Assembly: GCA_002774875.1 (NCBI GenBank)
Contig: PCYM01000002.1
Coordinates: forward strand, 14,781 to 78,780
Direction: 5' to 3'
Length of the DNA stretch: 64,000 nucleotides
Origin: Candidatus Uhrbacteria bacterium CG10_big_fil_rev_8_21_14_0_10_50_16
Lineage (GTDB): Bacteria > Patescibacteriota > Patescibacteriia > UBA9934 > UBA11717
Part shown: positions 3,478 to 35,104 of the stretch, one piece after another
Layout of the letters: the number at the start of each line of letters is the position of its first letter
Position numbering within the stretch: the first letter of the stretch is position 1
Made by a program: the position numbers and the translations under genes
The notes under the pieces: generated by a model
The model's input: the letters and a program-made list of their open reading frames with translations, nothing else
What the model was told of the DNA's origin: nothing
The model's database searches: none

Positions 3478-4464
3478 TTATCCTCGCCAAATTGTAAACC
3501 CAAGATACACAACATAGGCGATTGTAAACAAGGCGCCTTCCCATCGACTCAATTCGCCCGTCCGTTTTTGATTGATCATGAATGGAAACAGTATTGCTGT
3601 TGCCGCAAACGCCAAGAAGACATCAATCAGACCACCTGGGAAAACAGGAACCGGCAATATAATCGCCGTGACGCCCAAGATCCAAAGTGTGTTAAAGGTG
3701 ACCGACCCAACAATGTTCCCAATCGCCATGTCCGTTTGTCCACGGTATGCCGCCATCATGGTTGCAGCAATTTCAGGGAGGGACGTTCCGGCAGCAACGA
3801 TGGTAAGAGAAATAAATGCCTGGCTAAACCCAAGCGAGAGCGCCAAAGCACTTGCACTTTCTACGATCAATTCACCACCCAAAATCAATCCAACAAGTCC
3901 TCCAACAATCATGGCAATCGATACTCCCGTCCGTTGTTTTACAACAAAAATAAGATCCTTATCTTTTTTACTCTCACGCCTCTTAACCAACATAGGTTTA
4001 ATCGTGAAGTACAAAAATACAAAAAAGAATGCAATGAGTGCAATGCCTTCTCCACGCGAGAGAATATTTTCCGTTCCCGAGAGAGGACCATCCACCATCA
4101 GCGCAAACAACACACCAGCTCCCAAAATCGCAAACGGAATCTCACGCCAGACCGCAGAGCGTGCTACCACCAATGGTCGCACAAGTGCCGCAAGCCCCAA
4201 CCCCAGCAAAATATTTGCAAGGTTGGAGCCGATCACGTTTCCAAAGGCAATATCCGGATTGCCACCTGCGGCCGCGAACATATTAACTGCCAGCTCAGGA
4301 GCTGAGGAGCCAAAGGCAACAACCGTGAGTCCAATAAATAGGTTCGAGAAACCAAAACGCTTGGCAATCGACGATGCACCCTTTACCAGCTGATCTGCGC
4401 CCACAATGAGAGCAAAGAATCCTGCTAACAAAATAATGATTTGAAAAAACATGTATGAATACAC
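3478..4464 (-). CDS. Ca2+/cation antiporter, CaCA family (YrbG-like Na+/Ca2+ exchanger)
   Basis: Two alpha-repeat motifs (GSSAPELAV..., GTSLPEIAAT...) in a polytopic membrane protein, 328 aa. Confidence 0.75.
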   Translation of the reverse strand: MYSYMFFQIIILLAGFFALIVGADQLVKGASSIAKRFGFSNLFIGLTVVAFGSSAPELAVNMFAAAGGNPDIAFGNVIGSNLANILLGLGLAALVRPLVVARSAVWREIPFAILGAGVLFALMVDGPLSGTENILSRGEGIALIAFFFVFLYFTIKPMLVKRRESKKDKDLIFVVKQRTGVSIAMIVGGLVGLILGGELIVESASALALSLGFSQAFISLTIVAAGTSLPEIAATMMAAYRGQTDMAIGNIVGSVTFNTLWILGVTAIILPVPVFPGGLIDVFLAFAATAILFPFMINQKRTGELSRWEGALFTIAYVVYLGFTIWRG

Positions 4465-4600
4465 AAATAATAGTGATTCAAGTATAGCACCTCCCTCTTG
4501 ACAAAACGTCCACAGTGTCGTAGGTTATCCTCTCGCCTTGAGCGAGAAAAAACGGACACATCATCCTTAGAAATAAGGATCAACTGCGAGGAGGATCGAG

Positions 4601-6259
4601 ATGAACGTAGGACGGCTTTTGATGGCCTGTCTGCTGGTGGTGGCCATGAGCGCCTCCGCTTTCGGACAGGATTCGCTCACTCTGGTGCTCGTGGGTCAGC
4701 CGCGAGAGCCGCAGATGGTGCCCAAGGTCGTGAAGGCCTTTACCCGCGCAACGGGTGGTGGCGTGACGCCCACGTCCGCTGAGACCGCTCTGCCCAACCG
4801 GCAGGTGATGGAAGCTTGTGTGGACACGAACGCAGACTCCGTCTGTGAGAACATGGGCGTCAACACGCTCTACCGTCAGCCGGGCAACCTTCTGCTGGTG
4901 AGCGGTGCGGACCCCGAGTTTCACCCGTGCACGGATCGTGGATCCTACACCGCCATGGAGGCAGAGGACCAGTTCGTCGCCAACAGTCGTGGTGCGAGCA
5001 TCATCGATCAGATGGATGCACTCGCGTACGGAAAGGCTGCAACGGCGCTAATGACGCTCGGAGAGGTTAGCCTCCCTTGCCTCAACGAACGGTTGGAGGA
5101 AGAAACGTTCTGGCGGTATAACTTCGTGGCTGGGTATCTGGCCTACGAGACTGCCAACAACCACTCCGCCGGCATCGATGCCGCGCGGCCGTTCTTTCTG
5201 AACGCCCTCCACACATCTCCGGGTCACACCTGGGACGCCGACTACCCGCCGGCGGCACAGACCGCCTATGCCGAGGCCAAGGTGGCCCTGGTGAAGGAGG
5301 AAATAGGGGAGGTGAACCACGACGCCATGCGAGTGGTGACCCTCGGGGCGTTCGACGCTCTGACGGTAGACACCCAATCCTACGCCGAGGGGATGCACCT
5401 GCACCCCGGCCTGCACCTGCTCCAGTGGAAGTTCCAGGGTATGGAGTACACGCGTGTGTTCAGCGTCCCTGAGGGCGGCGTTGACCAGGTCCTTCTGCTC
5501 GTGGATGGCGCGAGCTGGGCGCAGGCCTTGCTCACCTTCCCCGAACAGCGCTCCCAGGCGCAACGTCTGGTGGTGGCCACAACTCTCAGCCTCATGACCC
5601 GCAACGGTCAGCGGTCGATGGGTGTCGTGGATCTTGCGCAGGACCCTCCACTGGGGCTTCTGTACAAAGCGGATGGCGAAGGCGTGCCACTCCCCGTGGA
5701 TCTGCCGACCTACACCGCCGCTGTAGAGGAGGGCGATGATGATGACGGTCCGGTCCGCCGGCCTCACGTGGAACCGTTCCAGACGGTGGACACCACGCCG
5801 GGTCAACTGGCGCTGGTGGCAGGCGGTGGGTTCAAGGGCTTCGGCCCGGCCACCTACGCCAGCGTCCACCTGGCGCTCGATGCCCACATCCGCAACGGCT
5901 TCGGCGTGGCCATTCAGGGCAACCTGGGGCTCACGTCCGTCTCCCTCCCGGATGGCACCAATGTCCTCGGAGACCTGGTCTCCCTAGGGCTGGGTGTGTG
6001 GTACCGGTTCTGGTCGCCGGTGGGGGTTCGCCCTCTCCTGCTACTAGATCTACTGCTGGACATCAACAGCTACGGCGTCAGTGCCCCCATCCCGCTCCCC
6101 TCCCTCACGGGCGGCGGCGGCGTGGAGGTGCTCCTGCCCGACTCCCGCTTCCGCGTCCGATTCGTCGGCTACGTGGGTGGTGGGTGGGATGGCACCACGA
6201 GTCGACCGCGCTACGGAGCCACGTCGGCTCTGGTGATGGAGCTGCGCCCGGCTCCCTAG
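4601..6259 (+). CDS. High-GC secreted hypothetical protein (552 aa, signal peptide, Cys-rich N-half, Gly-rich beta-like C-half)
   Basis: ORF track; GAGGAGG SD 7 nt upstream of ATG; GC ~65% with GC3 near saturation against ~48% flanks; shadow ORFs on other frames. Confidence 0.6.
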   Translation: MNVGRLLMACLLVVAMSASAFGQDSLTLVLVGQPREPQMVPKVVKAFTRATGGGVTPTSAETALPNRQVMEACVDTNADSVCENMGVNTLYRQPGNLLLVSGADPEFHPCTDRGSYTAMEAEDQFVANSRGASIIDQMDALAYGKAATALMTLGEVSLPCLNERLEEETFWRYNFVAGYLAYETANNHSAGIDAARPFFLNALHTSPGHTWDADYPPAAQTAYAEAKVALVKEEIGEVNHDAMRVVTLGAFDALTVDTQSYAEGMHLHPGLHLLQWKFQGMEYTRVFSVPEGGVDQVLLLVDGASWAQALLTFPEQRSQAQRLVVATTLSLMTRNGQRSMGVVDLAQDPPLGLLYKADGEGVPLPVDLPTYTAAVEEGDDDDGPVRRPHVEPFQTVDTTPGQLALVAGGGFKGFGPATYASVHLALDAHIRNGFGVAIQGNLGLTSVSLPDGTNVLGDLVSLGLGVWYRFWSPVGVRPLLLLDLLLDINSYGVSAPIPLPSLTGGGGVEVLLPDSRFRVRFVGYVGGGWDGTTSRPRYGATSALVMELRPAP

Positions 6260-8072: not shown

Positions 8073-8255
8073 TGCCTACAATATAGCCTAAACTGTTACG
8101 AAAGTCACAGCATGGCATAAAAATCTACCAAAGCACTGACCCCGTTGTCAGCGAGCTTTGGTAGGTCGTATGTCGAAAGGCATGCGTTGGGAGTAATCCC
8201 ACGAGCTGGCAGCGGGTTTTGTGCTGTCCGCTCGAATAAATCCTACCAAAGCGCT

Positions 8256-13898: not shown

Positions 13899-15828
13899 GA
13901 CACAACGCCTCGCTGCTATCAGTGTTCTTGGTAGTCTGTTGATTGTTTCGGTTATTGTTATTGCCGGCGTGAGTTATGCCTACGCGTATAACGATCGTTT
14001 TTTTCCAGGAAGTATTGTTGCAACCGTACCGCTCGGTGGTCTCTCCTATGAGTCAGGGCTCACAGCCGTCAATACACGCGTCGACGCGCTCATTCAGGAA
14101 GGAGCATCCATCACCATCAACGGAGAAACGCGCACCATTCCTTTGCAGATTCTTTCTCCTTCCGACCCAGATCTTACGCAGGATCTCGTAACCTTAGATG
14201 TCGCCCTATCTGTTCAAGACGCCTTCAACAAGGGACGCACACGGAATTTATTTGTGCGTGCCTGGGACATGGCGTTTTTGGGGCTCGTTCGTCCCTCTAT
14301 GCCAATCCATGTGGAGACAAATCGCGAGGCCATTGAATCAAATCTGTTAAAAACGTTTGAGGATTATTACAACCCCGCACAGGAACCTACCTTTACAATT
14401 ACCCATGTCGATGACGTGTGGGATGTGCAGGTTGTAGAGGGTCATTCTGGTCGCGCTTTCAATGTGGACGACGCGATTCATGCGTTTACTTCCATGATGA
14501 CGCAGCTCAATAATTCAGAGGTACGCATTGCTCTCGTCGATGAGGACCCCCAGATTACTACCGAACAAGCGAGTGCGCGTGTGGATCAGGTTATGGCCGT
14601 TTTGGAGGCCGCGCCATTTGATTTTATCTACGAACCAAGTCGATTCGAGTCGTTTTCTTATAGCCTCGAGGCTGTCGACCTTGCGGATACACTCCAACTT
14701 GAACGCACAGCAGATGATCGCATAGCGCTCTCGGTTCCTGACTCGCTACCACTGTTTGAAACCATGACGCAGGACATCAACATCGATGCGCGCAACGCAC
14801 GATTCGTGATGGAAAATGATCGTGTGCAGGAGTTTACGCCAAGCATCGAAGGACGCGCCGTAAATACGGATGCCGTTCGACTTGCACTTATAGACCGACT
14901 AAGTACATTTACGCCAATTAGTTCTGTCGTTCCTTCCAACGAACCAATCGCTATTTCTGTAGAACGCACAGAAGCCGACATTACCACCAATGAAGTGAAC
15001 GATCTCGGCATTAGTGAGATTATAGGCGTGGGTGTTTCCGATTTTCACAACAGTCCCGCCAATCGTATTGCCAATATTAAGCACGGCATGAGTAAATTAA
15101 ATGGAATGCTCATTGCACCTGGTGAGGAGACTTCGCTCCTGGAGCACTTGCGACCATTCACGATTGCAGACGGTTACTTGCCTGAGCTCGTCATTAAAGG
15201 TGATGAGATTATTCCAGAGGTTGCCGGAGGGTTGTGTCAGATTGGGTCTACCGCTTTCCGCGCTGTCATGAATTCCGGGCTTACCATTACCTCGCGTCGC
15301 AACCATTCGCTTGTCGTCAGCTATTACAACGACCTCACCAACGGCAACCCAGGAACAGACGCGACGCTCTACGACCCCGCTCCTGACTTTAAATTCATTA
15401 ACGACACAGGTCATTACATCCTCCTTAATACCGAAATGGACATGGCCACAAGCAAACTCTACTTTACATTCTGGGGAACCAACGACGGACGTAAGGGTTA
15501 CTACTCGCCTCCTGTTGTTCTCAACTGGAGTTCGGCAGGACCCGCTGTCACCACCTATACCACAAGCTTGGCACCTGGCGTTAAACGTTGTCAGTCGGCA
15601 CATCCCGGCGCCAACACCACGTTCAACTATTTTGTGGAGCGACCAGATGGAACCGTGGAGAAAACCGTGTATGAGAGTCATTACCGTGCCCTACCCGCAT
15701 CATGTCTTGTAGGTGTGGCGGCAGATAGGCTTGATCCAGACGGTAATCTGATTCCAGAGTCTGTCGAGCCTGCACCTGAGACTCCGATTATCGACGCTCC
15801 GGTAGAAGAACCGATCGCCGTAGAATAA
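13873..15828 (+). CDS. VanW-family protein with N-terminal transmembrane anchor
   Basis: VanW core ...EVAGGLCQIGSTAFRAVMNSGLTITSRRNHS...GTDATLY; start moved to MKINLKENK before the TM helix. Confidence 0.7.
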   Translation: MKINLKENKTQRLAAISVLGSLLIVSVIVIAGVSYAYAYNDRFFPGSIVATVPLGGLSYESGLTAVNTRVDALIQEGASITINGETRTIPLQILSPSDPDLTQDLVTLDVALSVQDAFNKGRTRNLFVRAWDMAFLGLVRPSMPIHVETNREAIESNLLKTFEDYYNPAQEPTFTITHVDDVWDVQVVEGHSGRAFNVDDAIHAFTSMMTQLNNSEVRIALVDEDPQITTEQASARVDQVMAVLEAAPFDFIYEPSRFESFSYSLEAVDLADTLQLERTADDRIALSVPDSLPLFETMTQDINIDARNARFVMENDRVQEFTPSIEGRAVNTDAVRLALIDRLSTFTPISSVVPSNEPIAISVERTEADITTNEVNDLGISEIIGVGVSDFHNSPANRIANIKHGMSKLNGMLIAPGEETSLLEHLRPFTIADGYLPELVIKGDEIIPEVAGGLCQIGSTAFRAVMNSGLTITSRRNHSLVVSYYNDLTNGNPGTDATLYDPAPDFKFINDTGHYILLNTEMDMATSKLYFTFWGTNDGRKGYYSPPVVLNWSSAGPAVTTYTTSLAPGVKRCQSAHPGANTTFNYFVERPDGTVEKTVYESHYRALPASCLVGVAADRLDPDGNLIPESVEPAPETPIIDAPVEEPIAVE

Positions 15829-24184: not shown

Positions 24185-25666
<1,482 letters not shown>

Positions 25667-28989: not shown

Positions 28990-29300
28990 ATAGGTAGTCC
29001 TTTTACAACAACAAAATCAATGACTCGAGAAGTAGTACTCTTATTACTCCCTGCAAAGCGAATCCGGGATGGTGGAAGCCGGATCATAGAATAAGAAGAA
29101 ATTGGACTCGATGAGATGACGCGTGCTTTTGTGCGTGTCCGGCATCCCCCGTAACCTTGGGATAATGTGTATCTACGGAGCACATGAAAGAGCCTTCTTT
29201 TTTTAGAAGGAATTGAGGTGGTACCGCGGTGGTGGAGAACCCCCGTCCTCAGACAACGTCTTGTTGTCTTTGGGCGGGGGTTTTTTGCCCCACGCAAGGA
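28990..29300 (+). promoter_or_regulatory. T-box riboswitch leader with intrinsic terminator
   Basis: Canonical T-box sequence AATTGAGGTGGTACCGCGGTG at ~29205-29225 (17/19 to AAUUAGGGUGGUACCGCGG); ~300-nt leader; terminator ccccc gtcc...gggcggggg + T6 at ~29242-29290 just before the SD of the downstream operon. Confidence 0.65.
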
Positions 29301-29307
29301 GTGTCTC

Positions 29308-30099
29308 ATGGATCTAACCCCTTTGTTCAAACATGCCTGGCGCGACCATGTCGGCATTGAGCGTGAATTTACGCTCAACCAGAATGAATGTGCCGTTCCC
29401 CTCTCACCTTCATTTCTTCGTTGCATGCATCATCTCCAACGTTCACTCGGACACAACCCAGATCGCTGGGCGCCAGAGCTCTCTGCGTGTCAGGTAGAGG
29501 ATCGTACTGTGCCTCATCGACGGCTCGCAACACTGCGCTCCGACCTGGCTAGTGCTCAGAACCGTGGAACACGCGTAGCTGCATCAATCGGGTGCAGGCT
29601 TGCGGCATCCGAAGTCGTTCCTCATGATGTCGTACGAGTTACGCATCCGAAGTACAGACATCTACAAGAACGTCTCCCGGAGAATGTTCTCATGGCTGCC
29701 TATCGAGTAGCGGGTGTCCATGTGCACATTGGATGTGGGTCTCTCCATGAAGCCGTGGAACGTCATGATCTGCTCTGCGATGCCCTCGTGGAGCTTGCTC
29801 GCATCTCTGACCACAGCAACGGTGAGCGGCTGCGACTGTACGGTGAGGTGTTAGCCTTCACCATGGGATCGAATGCGCCTAATACAATCGGAACCTCGCC
29901 ACATTACGAATCTCCAGAAGGCTGGCATGCACGCATGCGTGCGCTTGGAGTCGAGCAACTCGCCTCCTGTTACGACCTGGTTCGCATCACCAGTTACGGA
30001 ACTGTAGAGGTACGTATCTTCGGCATGACAGAGTCACCAGACGAGATCATTGATTGGGTAGAAAGGATTCATTCACTCGTCGGTATTACGACGATCTAA
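29308..30099 (+). CDS. Carboxylate-amine ligase, glutamate-cysteine ligase family 2 (YbdK-like)
   Basis: GCS2-like sequence over ~260 aa; AAGGAG SD 7 nt upstream of ATG 29308. Confidence 0.55.
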   Translation: MDLTPLFKHAWRDHVGIEREFTLNQNECAVPLSPSFLRCMHHLQRSLGHNPDRWAPELSACQVEDRTVPHRRLATLRSDLASAQNRGTRVAASIGCRLAASEVVPHDVVRVTHPKYRHLQERLPENVLMAAYRVAGVHVHIGCGSLHEAVERHDLLCDALVELARISDHSNGERLRLYGEVLAFTMGSNAPNTIGTSPHYESPEGWHARMRALGVEQLASCYDLVRITSYGTVEVRIFGMTESPDEIIDWVERIHSLVGITTI

Positions 30100-30137
30100 C
30101 GCCCCTGCCTGGGGGAAACCCCAGGCAGCTTACTTCT

Positions 30138-31004
30138 ATGCCTATTTCTTCTATTACAACACACACTGGCAGTTCACCTGGTCCCACGGTGACGATTCTT
30201 GGAGCGACCCATGGCGATGAACCAGGGGGTGTTCGAATTGTTGAGCGCCTTCGTAACTATCTTGATTCACAACTTTTTTATGGCACCGTCAACTTAGGAA
30301 TTGGAAATCCGGAGGCGTACAAACGACGATCTCGTTCTGCAGATCCCGATTCTAACACAAACATGAATCGCGTCTTTACAGCAAAGCGTCTTTTAGATCC
30401 GCAGCCGCGATCAAGAGATGTCCTTAGAGCTCAGGAGCTCGCACCACTTCTTGCAAAAACGGATTATCTTATAGATCTCCATGCGACAAGTCTTCCGTCA
30501 GAGCCGTTTCTCTGCTTTGGACTAAACCCTGAAAAACACTCCCCACTAACACGGTTCGCTCCAGTGCAACGTATTCTCATTGATTCAAATCATTTCATGG
30601 GTAAAGAGCTTGGAACAACGGATGCCTATGTGGATCGATCAGGTGGCATAGGTATTTGTTATGAAACAGGACAATGGTCCAATCTCTTACAACAGGATAA
30701 AGCTTACAAAGGCGTTCTGAATATGCTACAAGGAATCGGCGTGATCCCCAACGGTGCAGCCGTTACCGTACCTTCGCAGCAAATATATACAATCGTCGCG
30801 CAGGGTAAAGCAAAGAGTGCTACTTTCACCTTTGCACCGCGTGCTTCCCACAATTGGGCGCCTATTAAATGTCGTGAATATATTGGTTCACATGGCCACA
30901 GCACGGCCGAGCTCGCTACCCATAACGGCGTCATTCTGTTTCAAGTTCGTAAGGAACACATACGTCCAAATGGATTTCTCTATTCGATTGCTGCACCTGT
31001 GTAA
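30138..31004 (+). CDS. Succinylglutamate desuccinylase/aspartoacylase (AstE/AspA) family metallo-hydrolase
   Basis: Zinc-site motif ILGATHGDEPGG and second His region (IDLHAT). Confidence 0.6.
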   Translation: MPISSITTHTGSSPGPTVTILGATHGDEPGGVRIVERLRNYLDSQLFYGTVNLGIGNPEAYKRRSRSADPDSNTNMNRVFTAKRLLDPQPRSRDVLRAQELAPLLAKTDYLIDLHATSLPSEPFLCFGLNPEKHSPLTRFAPVQRILIDSNHFMGKELGTTDAYVDRSGGIGICYETGQWSNLLQQDKAYKGVLNMLQGIGVIPNGAAVTVPSQQIYTIVAQGKAKSATFTFAPRASHNWAPIKCREYIGSHGHSTAELATHNGVILFQVRKEHIRPNGFLYSIAAPV

Positions 31005-31042: not shown

Positions 31043-31690
31043 ATGATCGCCTCTCAACAATCCTACAAAGAAGTTCTACGGCGACTACGGAAGCGATACA
31101 AAAAATCGCCAACAGATTTTGTGCACTGGTCTAACCCATTGGAATTGATCATGGGAACCGTACTGTCTGCCCAATGTACCGACAAGCGCGTTAACCAAGT
31201 CACAAGGGTGCTCTTTAAAAGGTATAAGACAGCAGCGGCTTACGCACAGGCGGATCTTGTGAAACTCAAGCAGATTGTTCGATCTACGGGATTTTATAAT
31301 TCTAAGGCACGTTATCTTAAAGGGATCGGCACGATCCTTGTTCGCGATCATGGAGGAAACGTTCCCGCGGATTATGATGCGCTCATGCAGCTCCCCGGCG
31401 TCTCCAATAAGACGGCAAATCTCATTATGGCAAAAGCCTTTGGGATAAACGTAGGTGTTGCCGTCGACACACATGTAAAGCGCATTGCTCCACGCATCGG
31501 ATGGGTGACAAAAACAGAGAACACCGCCAAAATTGAACGAGAGCTCAACGCCATTGCCGACCCCAAAGACTATCTTGATCTCAACGAGTACTTAATTTTG
31601 CTTGGTCGTGATGTGTGCGGCCGCACACCAAACTGTGCCGCCTGCCCGCTTAATGATCTGTGCAAAACTGGAATCAAAAACACCCACTAG
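31043..31690 (+). CDS. nth: Endonuclease III (Nth), [4Fe-4S] DNA glycosylase/lyase
   Basis: HhH-GPD region LPGVSNKTANLIM, C-terminal Cys cluster CGRTPNCAACPLNDLC. Confidence 0.85.
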   Translation: MIASQQSYKEVLRRLRKRYKKSPTDFVHWSNPLELIMGTVLSAQCTDKRVNQVTRVLFKRYKTAAAYAQADLVKLKQIVRSTGFYNSKARYLKGIGTILVRDHGGNVPADYDALMQLPGVSNKTANLIMAKAFGINVGVAVDTHVKRIAPRIGWVTKTENTAKIERELNAIADPKDYLDLNEYLILLGRDVCGRTPNCAACPLNDLCKTGIKNTH

Positions 31691-31722: not shown

Positions 31723-33237
31723 CTACAACTGCCTAACCACTTTGATATTGGCACCAAGCTTACTGAACTTTTCGGCGATATCCTCGTATCCACGGTTAAT
31801 GGAATAGACGTTTCGCAACATCGATGTTCCCTTTGCCGACAACATAGCAATAAGAATTAACATCGCCGGACGCAGCGCCGGTGGCGTAGTAATGTCAGCG
31901 GCCGTAAAGGCGACCGGACCATCCACCTGCGCACGATGAATATCTAACAACGTCACCTTCCCTCCTACTTTGGTGAGCTCCGTGTAATAAATCGCGCGGT
32001 TCTCATACGGCCAGTCGTGGATGAGTGTACGTCCCTTTGCCTTACATGCAATCAGAACAAAGAAGGGAAGATTATCCATGTTAATCCCCGGGTATGGACG
32101 CGGCGCGATCTTATCGGTCAACGCGGTCAGAACCGAGGGCAACGTTTGAATATCCACCAATCGCGTCTGGCCATTATCCGCAAGGTACGACTTTTTGATC
32201 TCATACTTAAATCCCATATTGGAAAGATAGAGCAACTCCAGCTCAAGAAAATCAATGGGACAGCGTTTTAACGTGATAGACGAATCCGTAACAATCGCCG
32301 CCGCTAAAAATGACATAGCCTCAATAGGATCCTCGCTTGGCGCGTAGGTAACGTCCATATTGATCTCCGATTTTCCGTGGATGGTCAGCGTAGAGCTTCC
32401 AATTCCTTCGATTTTGACACCGAGTTTTTGCAAATAAAAGCACACATCCTGCACCATGTAGTTTGCTGACGCGTATTTGATTACGGTTATACCGTCTATT
32501 TTTGCCGCCGCCATCAGCACATTCTCCGTTACCGTGTCGCCCGCCTCCGACAAAATAATCTCAGCCGGTTTAGGGCGTTTTACCTCCACGTGATACACAC
32601 TTTCCTTGACCTGCACACGCAGCCCGAGTTTCTCTAACCCCTCCAAATGTGGGTGTACGCTGCGCGTTCCTAGTTTACAACCACCCGCATACGGGAGATC
32701 GAACGATTTTGTCCAATGCATGAGCGGCCCCATGAACATAATAATGCTCCTAGTTTTCGCACCCGCCTCTGCATCTAACCCAGCAAGATTAAGTTCTTTT
32801 GGCGGTGTAATTTTGAGATCATTCCCCTCTATCCACTTTACATTTACGCCGATACTCTCCAACACCTCAATAAGCCGATAGACTTCCTCAATACGAGGCA
32901 CATGCCTGAGTGTGGTGACACCATTATTGAGTAATGACGCACACAGCAAACCCACGGCAGCATTCTTAGATGTGCTCATGGTCACCGATCCTTTAAGCTT
33001 TTTGCCACCCACAATCTGAAAGTTGAGTGCACCTGTCCCAAGAGACACAATCTGATAGTTGAGCGCGCGAGAAATCCGAGAAAGCGTGTCCACACTCAGG
33101 TTTTGTTCTCCCCGTTCAATCCGCGCTACGGCACTTTGGCTTGTTTTGAGTTGACGCGCGAGGTCTGCCTGCGTCATGCCTTGCTGTTTACGTAGTTCCG
33201 TAATAAAGGCACCAATCTTTTTTTGTTCGGTTTGCAT
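31723..33237 (-). CDS. murA: UDP-N-acetylglucosamine 1-carboxyvinyltransferase MurA fused to an N-terminal XRE-type HTH domain
   Basis: Residues ~8-62 KIGAFITELRKQQGMTQADLARQLKTSQSAVARIERGEQNLSVDTLSRISRALN = HTH_XRE; from ~70 onward FQIVGGKKLKGSVTMSTSKNAAVGLL... aligns to MurA including catalytic Cys (GGCKLGTR); no stop between the two parts. Confidence 0.75.
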   Translation of the reverse strand: MQTEQKKIGAFITELRKQQGMTQADLARQLKTSQSAVARIERGEQNLSVDTLSRISRALNYQIVSLGTGALNFQIVGGKKLKGSVTMSTSKNAAVGLLCASLLNNGVTTLRHVPRIEEVYRLIEVLESIGVNVKWIEGNDLKITPPKELNLAGLDAEAGAKTRSIIMFMGPLMHWTKSFDLPYAGGCKLGTRSVHPHLEGLEKLGLRVQVKESVYHVEVKRPKPAEIILSEAGDTVTENVLMAAAKIDGITVIKYASANYMVQDVCFYLQKLGVKIEGIGSSTLTIHGKSEINMDVTYAPSEDPIEAMSFLAAAIVTDSSITLKRCPIDFLELELLYLSNMGFKYEIKKSYLADNGQTRLVDIQTLPSVLTALTDKIAPRPYPGINMDNLPFFVLIACKAKGRTLIHDWPYENRAIYYTELTKVGGKVTLLDIHRAQVDGPVAFTAADITTPPALRPAMLILIAMLSAKGTSMLRNVYSINRGYEDIAEKFSKLGANIKVVRQL

Positions 33238-33304
33238 AGTAAAAACATTTTATATCATATATGGTATATTGTCAATCAACAAAAACCTGCTATACTTGAG
33301 TCCT

Positions 33305-35104
33305 ATGGAAAAGCCCTCCGCCTTTTTGAGACAAGAAGCCAAGAAGCGACCCGAAGCTGCAGAAGTCCGCAGTGCAAAAGCTGCAGAGCTCGTTGAGGCA
33401 CGCACGCAAGACAGAGAACGCAGGGAGCGTCTTGCAGAACTCGCCGAGCAGATAGAAAACGGACGTTCGGAGGCATCACGCATAGAAGAAGGACTCCTTA
33501 CAGAGGCAGCGCAAGAACTCTCCACTGTGGAACAACAACTTAAAGAATTGCGAACCAGTAAACTCGCGGAAGTTTGGAATTGGAGACAAATCAAACAAGT
33601 AAAGGCAGAGATTGCACAGATACGAGCAAAACAAGGCGAGGGGGAATCCAGCCTGTACGTTGCTCAAGACTCCGTCAATAAGGCACAGGAACAACTGTAT
33701 GTCGCCAAGCAGAAGACGGATGTCCCATCGGCTCACGATATTTTGAATCAATACTACGAGGACGAGAAAGCTCTTTGGGAAAATCGTGAGGCTTCCATGG
33801 ACGATGTAGCTGAGTATTTTAGGGCAGACAAGCTTGCCGATATGGATATGGAGAGCTATGTGGACCTGCTGCGCCGCTTCCCTTCCGAAATGGTTACACA
33901 CGTTAGCCGTCGCGGCATCCGAGATCATGCCGAGCTTAGTTACCATACCTCTGGATTACAGGAATATCATGCAGCGTTTGATAGTGTCTTGGAAACAGGT
34001 CGGCTACAGTCAGCAATCAGTATTAAACTCGAAGGTGATCAAAAGGATGACGCGATTGCAAAACAGCTTAAATTAGACTCCTTTGCGACAAAAGAAGAAG
34101 CCTATGCGCATCTTGATCAACTAACCCAACGAGAAGGCTGGAATAGTTTTGCCGATCATAGCGCTGTTCATTTTGCCACAGAATGGGTGGCCGATGCCTA
34201 CTACGGATCCGAACGAGATAATGAAGTCTTTATTGCGTTTCCCTCTGCCCTTATTGCATCCGAATTCCAGTTTGGCGGGGGGCATGGTCGCGATCTTACA
34301 GAAGCAGGTGAAGACTCAGTAAGAAATGATTTGTGGGTTTGGCAAAAAGACGAGGAAGGCATCCCAATTGATGCAGGAGTCACATTCCTGCCAAAAGAAG
34401 CAGCCGTGGATCCAGAAACAGGCTCTCGCTATGAACTCGATACGGACAAAAACCCTATCGTTGATACGGAACGTGTACAACAATTAAAATCGGTACTTGA
34501 ATCCGGAGTCATTATTGAACTCGCAGCAGCATCCAGAGAAAAAGAATATGAATCCTACTCTCTTCCACCGTCAGAAAGAGTGTGGAGAAAAAAAGAGATA
34601 GAAACCGAGCTAAGGAAAAACATTCAAGAGGCACTGGGTATCTCTGATAAAACAGCCAAGGATGTACTCTATGACGTTGTGCCTCTCGTCGTCTTATCAG
34701 AGAGAGTTCAAAAAGCCCTTGCTGCAGAACCAGATCCAAACAACCAAGTAGTCGAGGATATGAATAACGCCCTTATTAAAATGGGCGCGTATTATAAAAC
34801 GGCAGAAAGGACGATTCCCTCTCAAGAGTATTGGAACAAACGATTCGAGGCGCACCCGGACCAAAAACCAAGTAAAGTCGTTTTTTACGAGGGGGACTCA
34901 CCTTCTGCCGCCCTCTATAAATGGCGAAAAGACAACGGGTTAACAAAACGCAGTGATAGCTTAGATGGCGACTTGAATGAAAAAAAGGTTACGACCGGAC
35001 AAGATACCATCGTCCAGTCTCGCTACAAAGACATTGCTCGTTCCATTATCGACAAACATTTTGATCAACAAGACACCTCCCAAACAGAAAAACAGGCCGC
35101 GTAG
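33305..35104 (+). CDS. Large hypothetical protein (599 aa; N-terminal charged coiled-coil region)
   Basis: ORF track, start moved to MEKPSAFL; no recognisable catalytic motif. Confidence 0.5.
   Translation: MEKPSAFLRQEAKKRPEAAEVRSAKAAELVEARTQDRERRERLAELAEQIENGRSEASRIEEGLLTEAAQELSTVEQQLKELRTSKLAEVWNWRQIKQVKAEIAQIRAKQGEGESSLYVAQDSVNKAQEQLYVAKQKTDVPSAHDILNQYYEDEKALWENREASMDDVAEYFRADKLADMDMESYVDLLRRFPSEMVTHVSRRGIRDHAELSYHTSGLQEYHAAFDSVLETGRLQSAISIKLEGDQKDDAIAKQLKLDSFATKEEAYAHLDQLTQREGWNSFADHSAVHFATEWVADAYYGSERDNEVFIAFPSALIASEFQFGGGHGRDLTEAGEDSVRNDLWVWQKDEEGIPIDAGVTFLPKEAAVDPETGSRYELDTDKNPIVDTERVQQLKSVLESGVIIELAAASREKEYESYSLPPSERVWRKKEIETELRKNIQEALGISDKTAKDVLYDVVPLVVLSERVQKALAAEPDPNNQVVEDMNNALIKMGAYYKTAERTIPSQEYWNKRFEAHPDQKPSKVVFYEGDSPSAALYKWRKDNGLTKRSDSLDGDLNEKKVTTGQDTIVQSRYKDIARSIIDKHFDQQDTSQTEKQAA

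Follow-up and report, generated by a model that had tools for sequence, protein, structure and literature searches.

A palindromic putative operator in the promoter of an XRE-type helix-turn-helix-MurA fusion gene of Candidatus Uhrbacteria and its relatives

MurA, the enzyme hit by fosfomycin, carries out the first committed step in making peptidoglycan. In Candidatus Uhrbacteria bacterium CG10_big_fil_rev_8_21_14_0_10_50_16, a gene of contig PCYM01000002.1 encodes a MurA that carries at its N-terminus a helix-turn-helix (HTH) domain of the XRE family. This locus, here called HTH-MurA, raises the question of what a DNA-binding domain does on a cell-wall enzyme. To our knowledge, canonical MurAs have no DNA-binding domain, and control of the MurA level is known only in a few model organisms, where it is mostly post-translational. 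The gene was analyzed within a stretch of 64,000 nucleotides (contig positions 14,781 to 78,780, referred to as the window), and positions below are those of the window unless a locus (L number) is named. From comparative sequence analysis we consider it likely that HTH-MurA is bifunctional, an active MurA that would also act as an autorepressor by binding a palindrome in its own promoter. The gene and the parts of its product are located as follows.

31723 to 33237, minus strand: HTH-MurA coding sequence, a single open reading frame (ORF) of 504 amino acids (aa) plus stop, ATG start
33049 to 33216, minus strand: XRE/Cro-C1 HTH domain, aa 8-63, from Pfam HTH_3, the helices of an AlphaFold2 (AF2) model and invariant residues
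33115 to 33144, minus strand: predicted recognition helix TSQSAVARIE, aa 32-41, third helix in the AF2 model
33022 to 33048, minus strand: linker between HTH and MurA, aa 64-72 (about 10 aa), a low-confidence block in the AF2 model
31735 to 33021, minus strand: MurA domain (UDP-N-acetylglucosamine, or UDP-GlcNAc, enolpyruvyl transferase), aa 73-501, from Pfam, NCBIfam, PDB and Foldseek
32677 to 32679, minus strand: TGT codon of the catalytic Cys187, in the flexible loop GGCKLGTR, read off the sequence

Both by sequence and by fold, HTH-MurA belongs to the MurA and XRE-HTH families. A domain search gave significant Pfam matches to HTH_3 at aa 14-63 (E 8e-16, 58 bits, cut-off 23) and to EPSP_synthase (PF00275) at aa 77-490 (E 3e-43). 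In the PDB sequence search the best match was MurA 5ujs (E 4e-55, aa 73-499), with NikO and AroA far weaker, and Foldseek also ranked MurA structures (TM scores 0.90-0.93) above NikO and AroA. In the PDB the HTH part matched 4ia8 and 4i6t, both structures of the controller protein, as well as a DNA-binding protein obtained by design, and its NCBIfam matches were weak and sub-threshold only. The AF2 monomer built with the family alignment (pLDDT 89, pTM 0.81) has four HTH helices at residues 2-18, 23-30, 34-41 and 49-59 (pLDDT 80-92). Linker residues 61-70 (mean pLDDT 61) are among its lowest-confidence blocks, and the Cys loop at 187-190 falls below a pLDDT of 50, matching the mobile Cys115 loop of real MurAs.

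Within the NCBIfam MurA models, the C-terminal 430 residues matched subfamily NF006873 with 328 bits (cut-off 297), and the score against NF009470 was 219, below its cut-off of 552. By such family scores the window protein is best described as a member of a divergent MurA clade. Its identity to E. coli MurA is 27-28%, a hairpin is about 11 residues longer in the HTH-MurA clade, and D369 (E. coli numbering) is Ala there. The E. coli sequence used as a ruler was entered by hand, and the alignment with it was consistent. In this alignment the catalytic and substrate residues K91, N92, R163, C187, R192, D388, R456 and R482 are all present, corresponding in order to K22, N23, R91, C115, R120, D305, R371 and R397 of E. 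coli MurA. These intact catalytic residues point to enzyme activity, and to essentiality, of the fused MurA.

The earlier note on this DNA had described an HTH continuous with a full MurA including the catalytic Cys, with no internal stop and no alternative MurA start, and had quoted the peptide QQGMTQADLARQLKTSQSAVARIERGEQNLS, which is aa 18-48. The first two statements hold, both Pfam domains and Cys187 being found in one ORF whose only stop codon lies at its end. The third is essentially right. In-frame GTG codons occur at V64, V76 and V85. At M87 there is an ATG, with AAAGGA ahead of it. None of them is conserved across the family, and a start at M87 would remove the first MurA strand, so that a free MurA made from an internal start is not supported.

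Could a frameshift or a mis-assembly have created the fusion from murA and a separate small XRE gene? Stand-alone XRE genes with the same type of operator, described below, make a two-gene ancestor plausible. No support for an artefact was found, however, and its probability is negligible. The exact 504-aa protein occurs on nine independent, separately assembled contigs from different samples and assemblers (among the sources are two or more JGI samples and an SRA run), with constant neighbours. A search of 5.8 billion proteins yielded 8000 scored candidates. The best 120 of these 8000 share 59-83% identity with the query, are about 500-545 aa long and carry HTH plus EPSP_synthase in all full-length entries, the sole exception being a partial entry of 338 aa. 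The identical protein on nine contigs and the presence of both domains in all full-length best relatives make the artefact explanation untenable, and the fusion goes well past what chance would produce. By source name, the best 120 of 8000 come from Uhrbacteria (the closest), Paceibacterota, Saccharibacteria, Kerfeldbacteria, Liptonbacteria, Taylorbacteria and Colwellbacteria, and they are named MurA in the database, except for one 'helix-turn-helix domain-containing protein'.

The same architecture with a conserved linker was found in hundreds of genomes of two phyla, closed isolate genomes included. When one genome per species was scanned, HTH-MurA turned up in at least 594 of these species-level genomes, and the best 80 loci all cover the query from residues ~1-7 to ~504. 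About half of these best 80 belong to Actinomycetota, with isolates and closed genomes among them. Carriers include Nocardioides sp. R1-1, N. halotolerans, Nostocoides japonicum, Knoellia subterranea, Aeromicrobium massiliense, Kribbella koreensis and Allokutzneria.

Loci L022, L031, L038, L052, L058, L060, L071-L073, L079 and L080, match at ~4001-5510 in each: HTH-MurA with operator in cultured Actinomycetota

In the family alignment the mean frequency of the top residue is 0.71 in the HTH, 0.62 in the linker and 0.75 in MurA; by this measure the constraint on the HTH is like that on the enzyme part. Among 37 diverse members, T22, Q23, T32, Q34, R39, E41, G43, Q45 and N46 of the HTH are invariant, and so are the eight MurA catalytic and substrate residues, Cys187 included. 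The recognition helix is near-invariant across the Candidate Phyla Radiation (CPR) and Actinomycetota, and the linker keeps its length and an IVxLxxGAxNF pattern. The HTH-MurA fusion is ancient.

If the fused HTH binds DNA, its site may lie close to its own gene. The palindrome at the positions given below is the only inverted repeat detected in the intergenic region upstream of murA, and it lies inside a predicted promoter.

33270 to 33275, minus strand: -35 hexamer TTGACA, from a promoter scan
33251 to 33268, palindrome: 18-bp putative operator, TATACCATATATGATATA on the gene strand, consensus match with 0 mismatches
33247 to 33252, minus strand: -10 hexamer TAAAAT, its first two bases being the last two of the operator, 9 nt from the ATG

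The promoter reads TTGACA, 17 nt, TAAAAT, 9 nt and ATG, with 11 of 12 consensus matches in the scan. To follow the palindrome through the family, each position of each ~9.5-kb locus was scored against the degenerate consensus TATMYCAYATRTGRKATA over its 18 positions, and the upstream DNA was aligned on the conserved 'IG' anchor of HTH-MurA. The best TATMYCAYATRTGRKATA match of the whole locus fell no more than about 180 nt upstream of the anchor in 71 of 73 anchored loci, and also in 7 of 7 further loci. In total, 78 of the 80 testable loci have a homologous site upstream (L030, which has no upstream sequence, was excluded). The proposal of the earlier note that the fusion couples transcriptional control to MurA thus gains comparative support. 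Sites scoring at least 16/18 numbered 67 inside the upstream windows and one in the remainder of the 634 kb of loci. The palindrome takes the form TATATCAyATrTGATATA, or more loosely TATAyCAyATrTGrTATA, in CPR and TATCTCAyATrTGAGATA, or ...GAGTTA, in Actinomycetota, and it is retained over locus GC contents from 0.29 to 0.75.

A position matrix of the aligned loci showed the same promoter geometry. TTG stands just 5' of the site in CPR loci, and in both phyla the final TA of the operator is followed by nnnT. Each of the 42 Actinomycetota loci used for the matrix has a T at position +22, giving the TAnnnT -10 box of actinobacteria. Between the -10 box and the start codon there are typically 6-7 nt, which suggests that the mRNA is leaderless or nearly so. 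Leaderless transcripts are common among XRE repressors.

Four loci of one Paceibacterota/Parcubacteria sub-clade differ in the distance between operator and gene. They were considered as exceptions to the palindrome and rejected as such, a perfect 18/18 site being present 109-135 nt further upstream.

L019, 3833-3988; L025, 3845-3988; L032, 1657-1786; L057, 3818-3967: operator and -10 box 109-135 nt upstream of the start codon

Their leader, which may be a long 5' untranslated region, shares a CCCGT about 20 nt after the -10 box, and some of these leaders hold other palindromes near the start.

Does the palindrome go with the HTH or with the enzyme? Unfused MurA relatives with intact catalytic motifs exist (P0122, 59% identity; P0125, 47%; P0135, 43%), and no operator was found at the loci of these three. 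The operator therefore goes with the HTH rather than with MurA. A further relative, P0123 (529 aa), has intact MurA catalytic motifs and an N-terminal domain without the TSQSA recognition helix, a case of reverse decay.

A reverse test was made with 80 metagenome loci taken solely for an exact match to TATAYCAYATRTGRTATA. A full HTH-MurA starts 21-130 nt from the site in 12 of them, and about 7 of the 80 carry a small stand-alone XRE protein with the same helix type. The remaining matches are probably chance matches in AT-rich DNA. Several small XRE proteins are found near the exact palindrome.

L114, 1903-2274; L151, 5865-6176; also L096, L130, L131 and L167: stand-alone XRE proteins of 97-125 aa, antitoxin-like

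In L114 the palindrome again lies between -35 and -10 (TTGACA-G-operator-TACT), and the helix of the L151 protein is TSQSAVARME. These stand-alone genes with the same operator type suggest that the N-terminal module of HTH-MurA may once have been an XRE gene under its own control, which carried promoter and operator along with it. Variant helices accompany variant sites. Four loci with a TTQSA helix (S33T) have sites of the TATAGC...GCTATA type, and two loci with an SQGA helix (S35G), from different actinobacterial sub-clades, have TAACTC...GAGTTA.

Another explanation is that the HTH has no specific DNA-binding role and is a protein-interaction or structural appendage, the palindrome being an AT-rich promoter element. 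The site does coincide with a promoter in every locus, and most exact metagenome matches are not beside such an HTH. We regard this as quite improbable, given that an AT-rich 18-bp palindrome is kept in genomes of 66-75% GC, that it is absent from the promoters of unfused relatives, that the recognition helix is near-invariant and that helix and site vary together. The conservation of the 18 bp at high GC, its fixed position in the promoter and the near-invariant helix are best explained if the palindrome is the binding site of the fused HTH.

The proposed mechanism is therefore autorepression through this site, and it can be put in a few steps. The N-terminal XRE HTH would bind the 18-bp palindrome as a dimer. 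As this site fills the promoter spacer and reaches two bases into the -10 box, RNA polymerase would be blocked. The concentration of MurA would in this way limit its own synthesis, a negative autoregulation acting on a near-leaderless transcript. Autorepression is what is expected of a site that occludes the promoter. Autoregulatory DNA binding as such appears probable from the comparative data, and murA itself appears to be the gene under control.

Activators of the MerR type bind between the -35 and -10 hexamers, precisely where the palindrome is found, and HTH-MurA might instead activate its promoter. This is quite improbable. The hexamers are near-consensus and the 17-nt spacer is optimal, so that no activation is needed. 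In addition, the domain is of the XRE and not of the MerR type, and the site overlaps the -10 box.

Several observations weigh against autorepression by a competent enzyme. MurA is usually described as a monomer, whereas an XRE HTH needs a dimer. The strict murA equivalog TIGR01072 scores 316, below its cut-off of 393. Two loci with a normal HTH, L010 (Kerfeldbacteria) and L021 (a Micrococcales metagenome-assembled genome), have no recognizable site anywhere in the locus. Around about 60 of the 80 exact metagenome matches, the 700 nt on hand contain no HTH of this kind, and the small stand-alone XRE proteins use the palindrome type as well, so that HTH-MurA is not alone in having it. Half-sites GAGTTA and GCTATA are also seen with the common helix and the covariation comprises few events, which leaves it only suggestive. 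Finally, no extra operator was found near other genes in the window or in the ~634 kb of loci. A wider regulon is thus unsupported for the catalytic form and was rejected: with up to 3 mismatches to the family consensus, 33251-33268 is the sole match in the 64-kb window, and the only other candidate is the single site scoring at least 16/18 outside the upstream windows.

The representative search also returned fused paralogues that are catalytically dead, at 32-42% identity (P0130, P0131, P0141, P0143, P0146, P0190 and P0250). Such forms are rare, amounting to about a dozen clusters. They have lost the Cys loop GGCxxGxR and, for the most part, R91, R120 and R371 (R397 in three of seven), and P0190 and P0250 additionally lack K22, N23 and D305. 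The MurA fold of about 430 aa is nevertheless retained whole and the helix TSQSA(V/I)xR(I/M)ExGxQN is intact. D305 persists, together with most of the K22/N23 and GDT motifs, in five of the seven proteins examined. In five of six loci examined, an operator was found in the promoter that serves the regulator gene, or the operon containing it; none was found in the sixth, L092. In four contexts the dead paralogue is divergent from an intact unfused murA, with the operator between the regulator operon and the divergent operon.

L084, 3498-5003; L088, 8001-9503; L091, 5211-6740; L215, 7001-8518; L087, 10001-11554; L085, 1474-2952: dead HTH-MurA paralogues
L084: a 164-aa gene, Mur ligase, then murA in one direction; HTH-pseudoMurA, then Mur ligase, in the other
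L088 to L090: murA then murB in one direction; regulator, Ddl, then Mur ligase in the other
L091: murA then murB in one direction; regulator then Mur ligase in the other
L215: three Mur ligases, murA, then murB in one direction; regulator then Mur ligase in the other
L087: operator ahead of an operon of NUDIX, sugar nucleotidyltransferase and regulator genes

The dead paralogues look like dedicated regulators descended from the enzyme. That they keep HTH and operator beside mur operons indicates that selection maintains regulation as a role of this architecture, and that this role is linked to genes for peptidoglycan precursors.

Such a division of labour in relatives suggests that the window protein, too, could be only a regulator or sensor, with another, unfused MurA doing the catalysis as in the genomes of L084, L088, L091 and L215; the missed TIGR01072 cut-off would fit. 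This is improbable. All eight catalytic and substrate residues of the window protein are intact and invariant in its clade, unlike those of the dedicated regulators, its score passes the NF006873 cut-off, and neither a second MurA-like sequence nor a closely related HTH was found in the 64-kb window.

If the fused protein is an active enzyme and an autorepressor, the MurA body could do more than catalysis. In an extension of the mechanism it would serve as the dimerization and ligand-sensing module, responding to UDP-GlcNAc, UDP-N-acetylmuramic acid (UDP-MurNAc) or phosphoenolpyruvate (PEP), and repression would track precursor supply as in a trigger enzyme like BirA or PutA. Known MurAs close over UDP-GlcNAc and bind UDP-MurNAc tightly. 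We take K22/N23, D305 and GDT to be UDP-GlcNAc contacts and the lost arginines to be PEP-binding; judged from MurA structures, UDP-sugar binding may then be retained in the dead paralogues. Ligand control of DNA binding is nonetheless put forward tentatively.

The more general form of this idea, which we hold equally tentatively, is that the MurA fold was recruited as the ligand-sensing and dimerization module of a transcription factor family. The catalytic form would read its own substrate and product state (UDP-GlcNAc, UDP-MurNAc, PEP) to set murA transcription, and the rare dead offshoots would be UDP-sugar-responsive repressors of murA-murB, mur-ligase and ddl operons. A cassette of leaderless promoter, operator and HTH-MurA would have moved between a Saccharibacteria lineage and Actinomycetota. 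A rival reading is a pure homeostat, that is, constitutive negative autoregulation with no metabolite effect, in which the MurA body is cargo or at most a dimerizer. In its favour, operators were detected at no other promoter, the overlap with the promoter calls for nothing beyond autorepression, and no computed result demonstrates a ligand effect. We consider it somewhat unlikely, as it is hard to square with dead paralogues that keep the whole MurA fold, and in five of seven cases D305 and most of K22/N23 and GDT, although the Cys loop and the PEP-binding arginines are lost.

The postulated transfer of the cassette rests on the phylogeny. In a neighbour-joining tree rooted with E. coli MurA (100 bootstraps), the Actinomycetota HTH-MurAs are monophyletic (93/100) and nested within CPR diversity. 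They are sister (73/100) to a Saccharibacteria clade (L007, L009, L013, L015 and L033; 97/100). Identity averages 78% among the Actinomycetota sequences, 62% among those of CPR and 57% from one group to the other; to E. coli MurA it averages 28%. The helix variant SAINRIEKG is common to Actinomycetota and this Saccharibacteria clade. The sister relation and the common helix variant suggest that HTH-MurA moved laterally between a Saccharibacteria lineage and Actinomycetota, in either direction. Actinomycetota is the phylum that includes known Saccharibacteria hosts. The Nocardioides locus contains an MDMPI-like gene, HTH-MurA, GDPD, RbpA and FxsA, and is not the atp-linked position that murA has in mycobacteria. 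As for the fusion as a lineage marker, an idea of the earlier note, it holds across most Patescibacteria groups. It fails as an exclusive one, since one monophyletic Actinomycetota set also has the fusion and unfused close relatives exist.

In the window, the HTH-MurA gene stands alone, between a convergent and a divergent neighbour.

31043 to 31690, convergent with HTH-MurA, downstream: endonuclease III-like gene
33305 to 35104, plus strand, start at 33305, divergent, upstream: ORF of 599 aa, no Pfam match, N-terminal part highly charged

The predicted promoter of the 599-aa ORF (TTGTCA at 33269, 16-nt spacer, TATACT, with a TG extension) abuts the murA operator, and this ORF could therefore be co-repressed. 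It is not conserved as a neighbour in other lineages. Neighbours vary between lineages, which indicates that there is no conserved operon partner. Reading the protein as a type II antitoxin (HipB/HigA/PezA-like XRE) was rejected, since no toxin gene was seen as a neighbour in the window or in Nocardioides (GDPD, RbpA, MDMPI), nor any conserved neighbour.

Other features of the window are the following.

8085 to 8202, plus strand: match to the LOOT RNA family (RF03000), 78 bits, gathering score 46
24185 to 25665, plus strand: complete 16S rRNA gene
29011 to 29253, plus strand: T-box leader, 97 bits, gathering score 93
29218 to 30099: GCS2-like carboxylate-amine ligase ORF
30054 to 31004: AstE/AspA-like gene

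The T-box precedes the GCS2-like and AstE/AspA-like genes, which are unusual downstream of such a leader. Past the 16S gene come an ORF and the tRNA-Phe and tRNA-Ile genes on the opposite strand. No 23S rRNA match was found in the 64-kb window, which suggests an unlinked rRNA arrangement.

No published description of the HTH-MurA architecture or of its operator was found in the full-text literature searched, which covered few subscription journals. The system would place transcriptional feedback inside the enzyme itself, with the operator predicted to the base pair. It occurs both in cultured, tractable actinobacteria (Nocardioides, Aeromicrobium, Kribbella and Knoellia) and in largely uncultured CPR bacteria, whose gene regulation is hardly known and for which it would offer a regulatory handle. 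The dead paralogues beside mur operons outline an apparent path from enzyme to dedicated regulator, and the fusion might serve to trace gene exchange between Saccharibacteria and Actinomycetota. If the MurA fold was indeed recruited as a sensor, genome-reduced CPR bacteria would have in the catalytic form their sole dedicated regulator of peptidoglycan precursor entry.

Compared with canonical MurA (E. coli, Enterobacter cloacae), HTH-MurA has the same fold and the same catalytic residues, including the Cys targeted by fosfomycin. The known controls of MurA are post-translational, namely feedback by UDP-MurNAc and, in Firmicutes, ClpCP/ReoM proteolysis. Among cell-wall regulators, MraZ heads cell-wall and division genes and represses its own operon. 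It is the DNA-binding member of the dcw cluster (PMC8871954). MraZ differs from HTH-MurA in being a separate, non-enzymatic protein of unrelated fold that binds direct repeats.

Autoregulated XRE repressors (lambda cI/434, controller C-proteins of restriction-modification systems, HigA/HipB antitoxins) belong to the same HTH family. As predicted for HTH-MurA, they are controlled through a palindromic operator in the promoter of their own gene and made from leaderless mRNA. They carry small oligomerization domains or act with toxin partners, whereas the partner in HTH-MurA is a 430-aa enzyme of an essential pathway.

HTH-MurA would also count as a trigger enzyme, a term reportedly used in this sense by Commichau and Stuelke: a seemingly competent enzyme and a DNA-binding domain share one polypeptide, and the predicted targets are genes of its own pathway. 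The trigger enzymes PutA and NadR link metabolite flux to expression. They resemble HTH-MurA as enzymes that double as repressors of their own pathway, and differ in their DNA-binding folds (ribbon-helix-helix in PutA) and pathways. We know of no trigger enzyme of the BirA, PutA or NadR type that acts in cell-wall synthesis, and HTH-MurA would bring cell-wall synthesis into the short list of enzyme-repressors. A further parallel is BirA, the biotin protein ligase and repressor of the bio operon, which also joins an N-terminal HTH-type domain to a biosynthetic enzyme in one polypeptide and whose palindromic operator overlaps the promoter of pathway genes, as is predicted for HTH-MurA. In BirA the HTH is winged, the repressed operon is a separate biosynthetic one, and the intermediate of the BirA reaction serves as corepressor; HTH-MurA has an XRE-type HTH, its predicted target is its own promoter, and its corepressor is only hypothesized.

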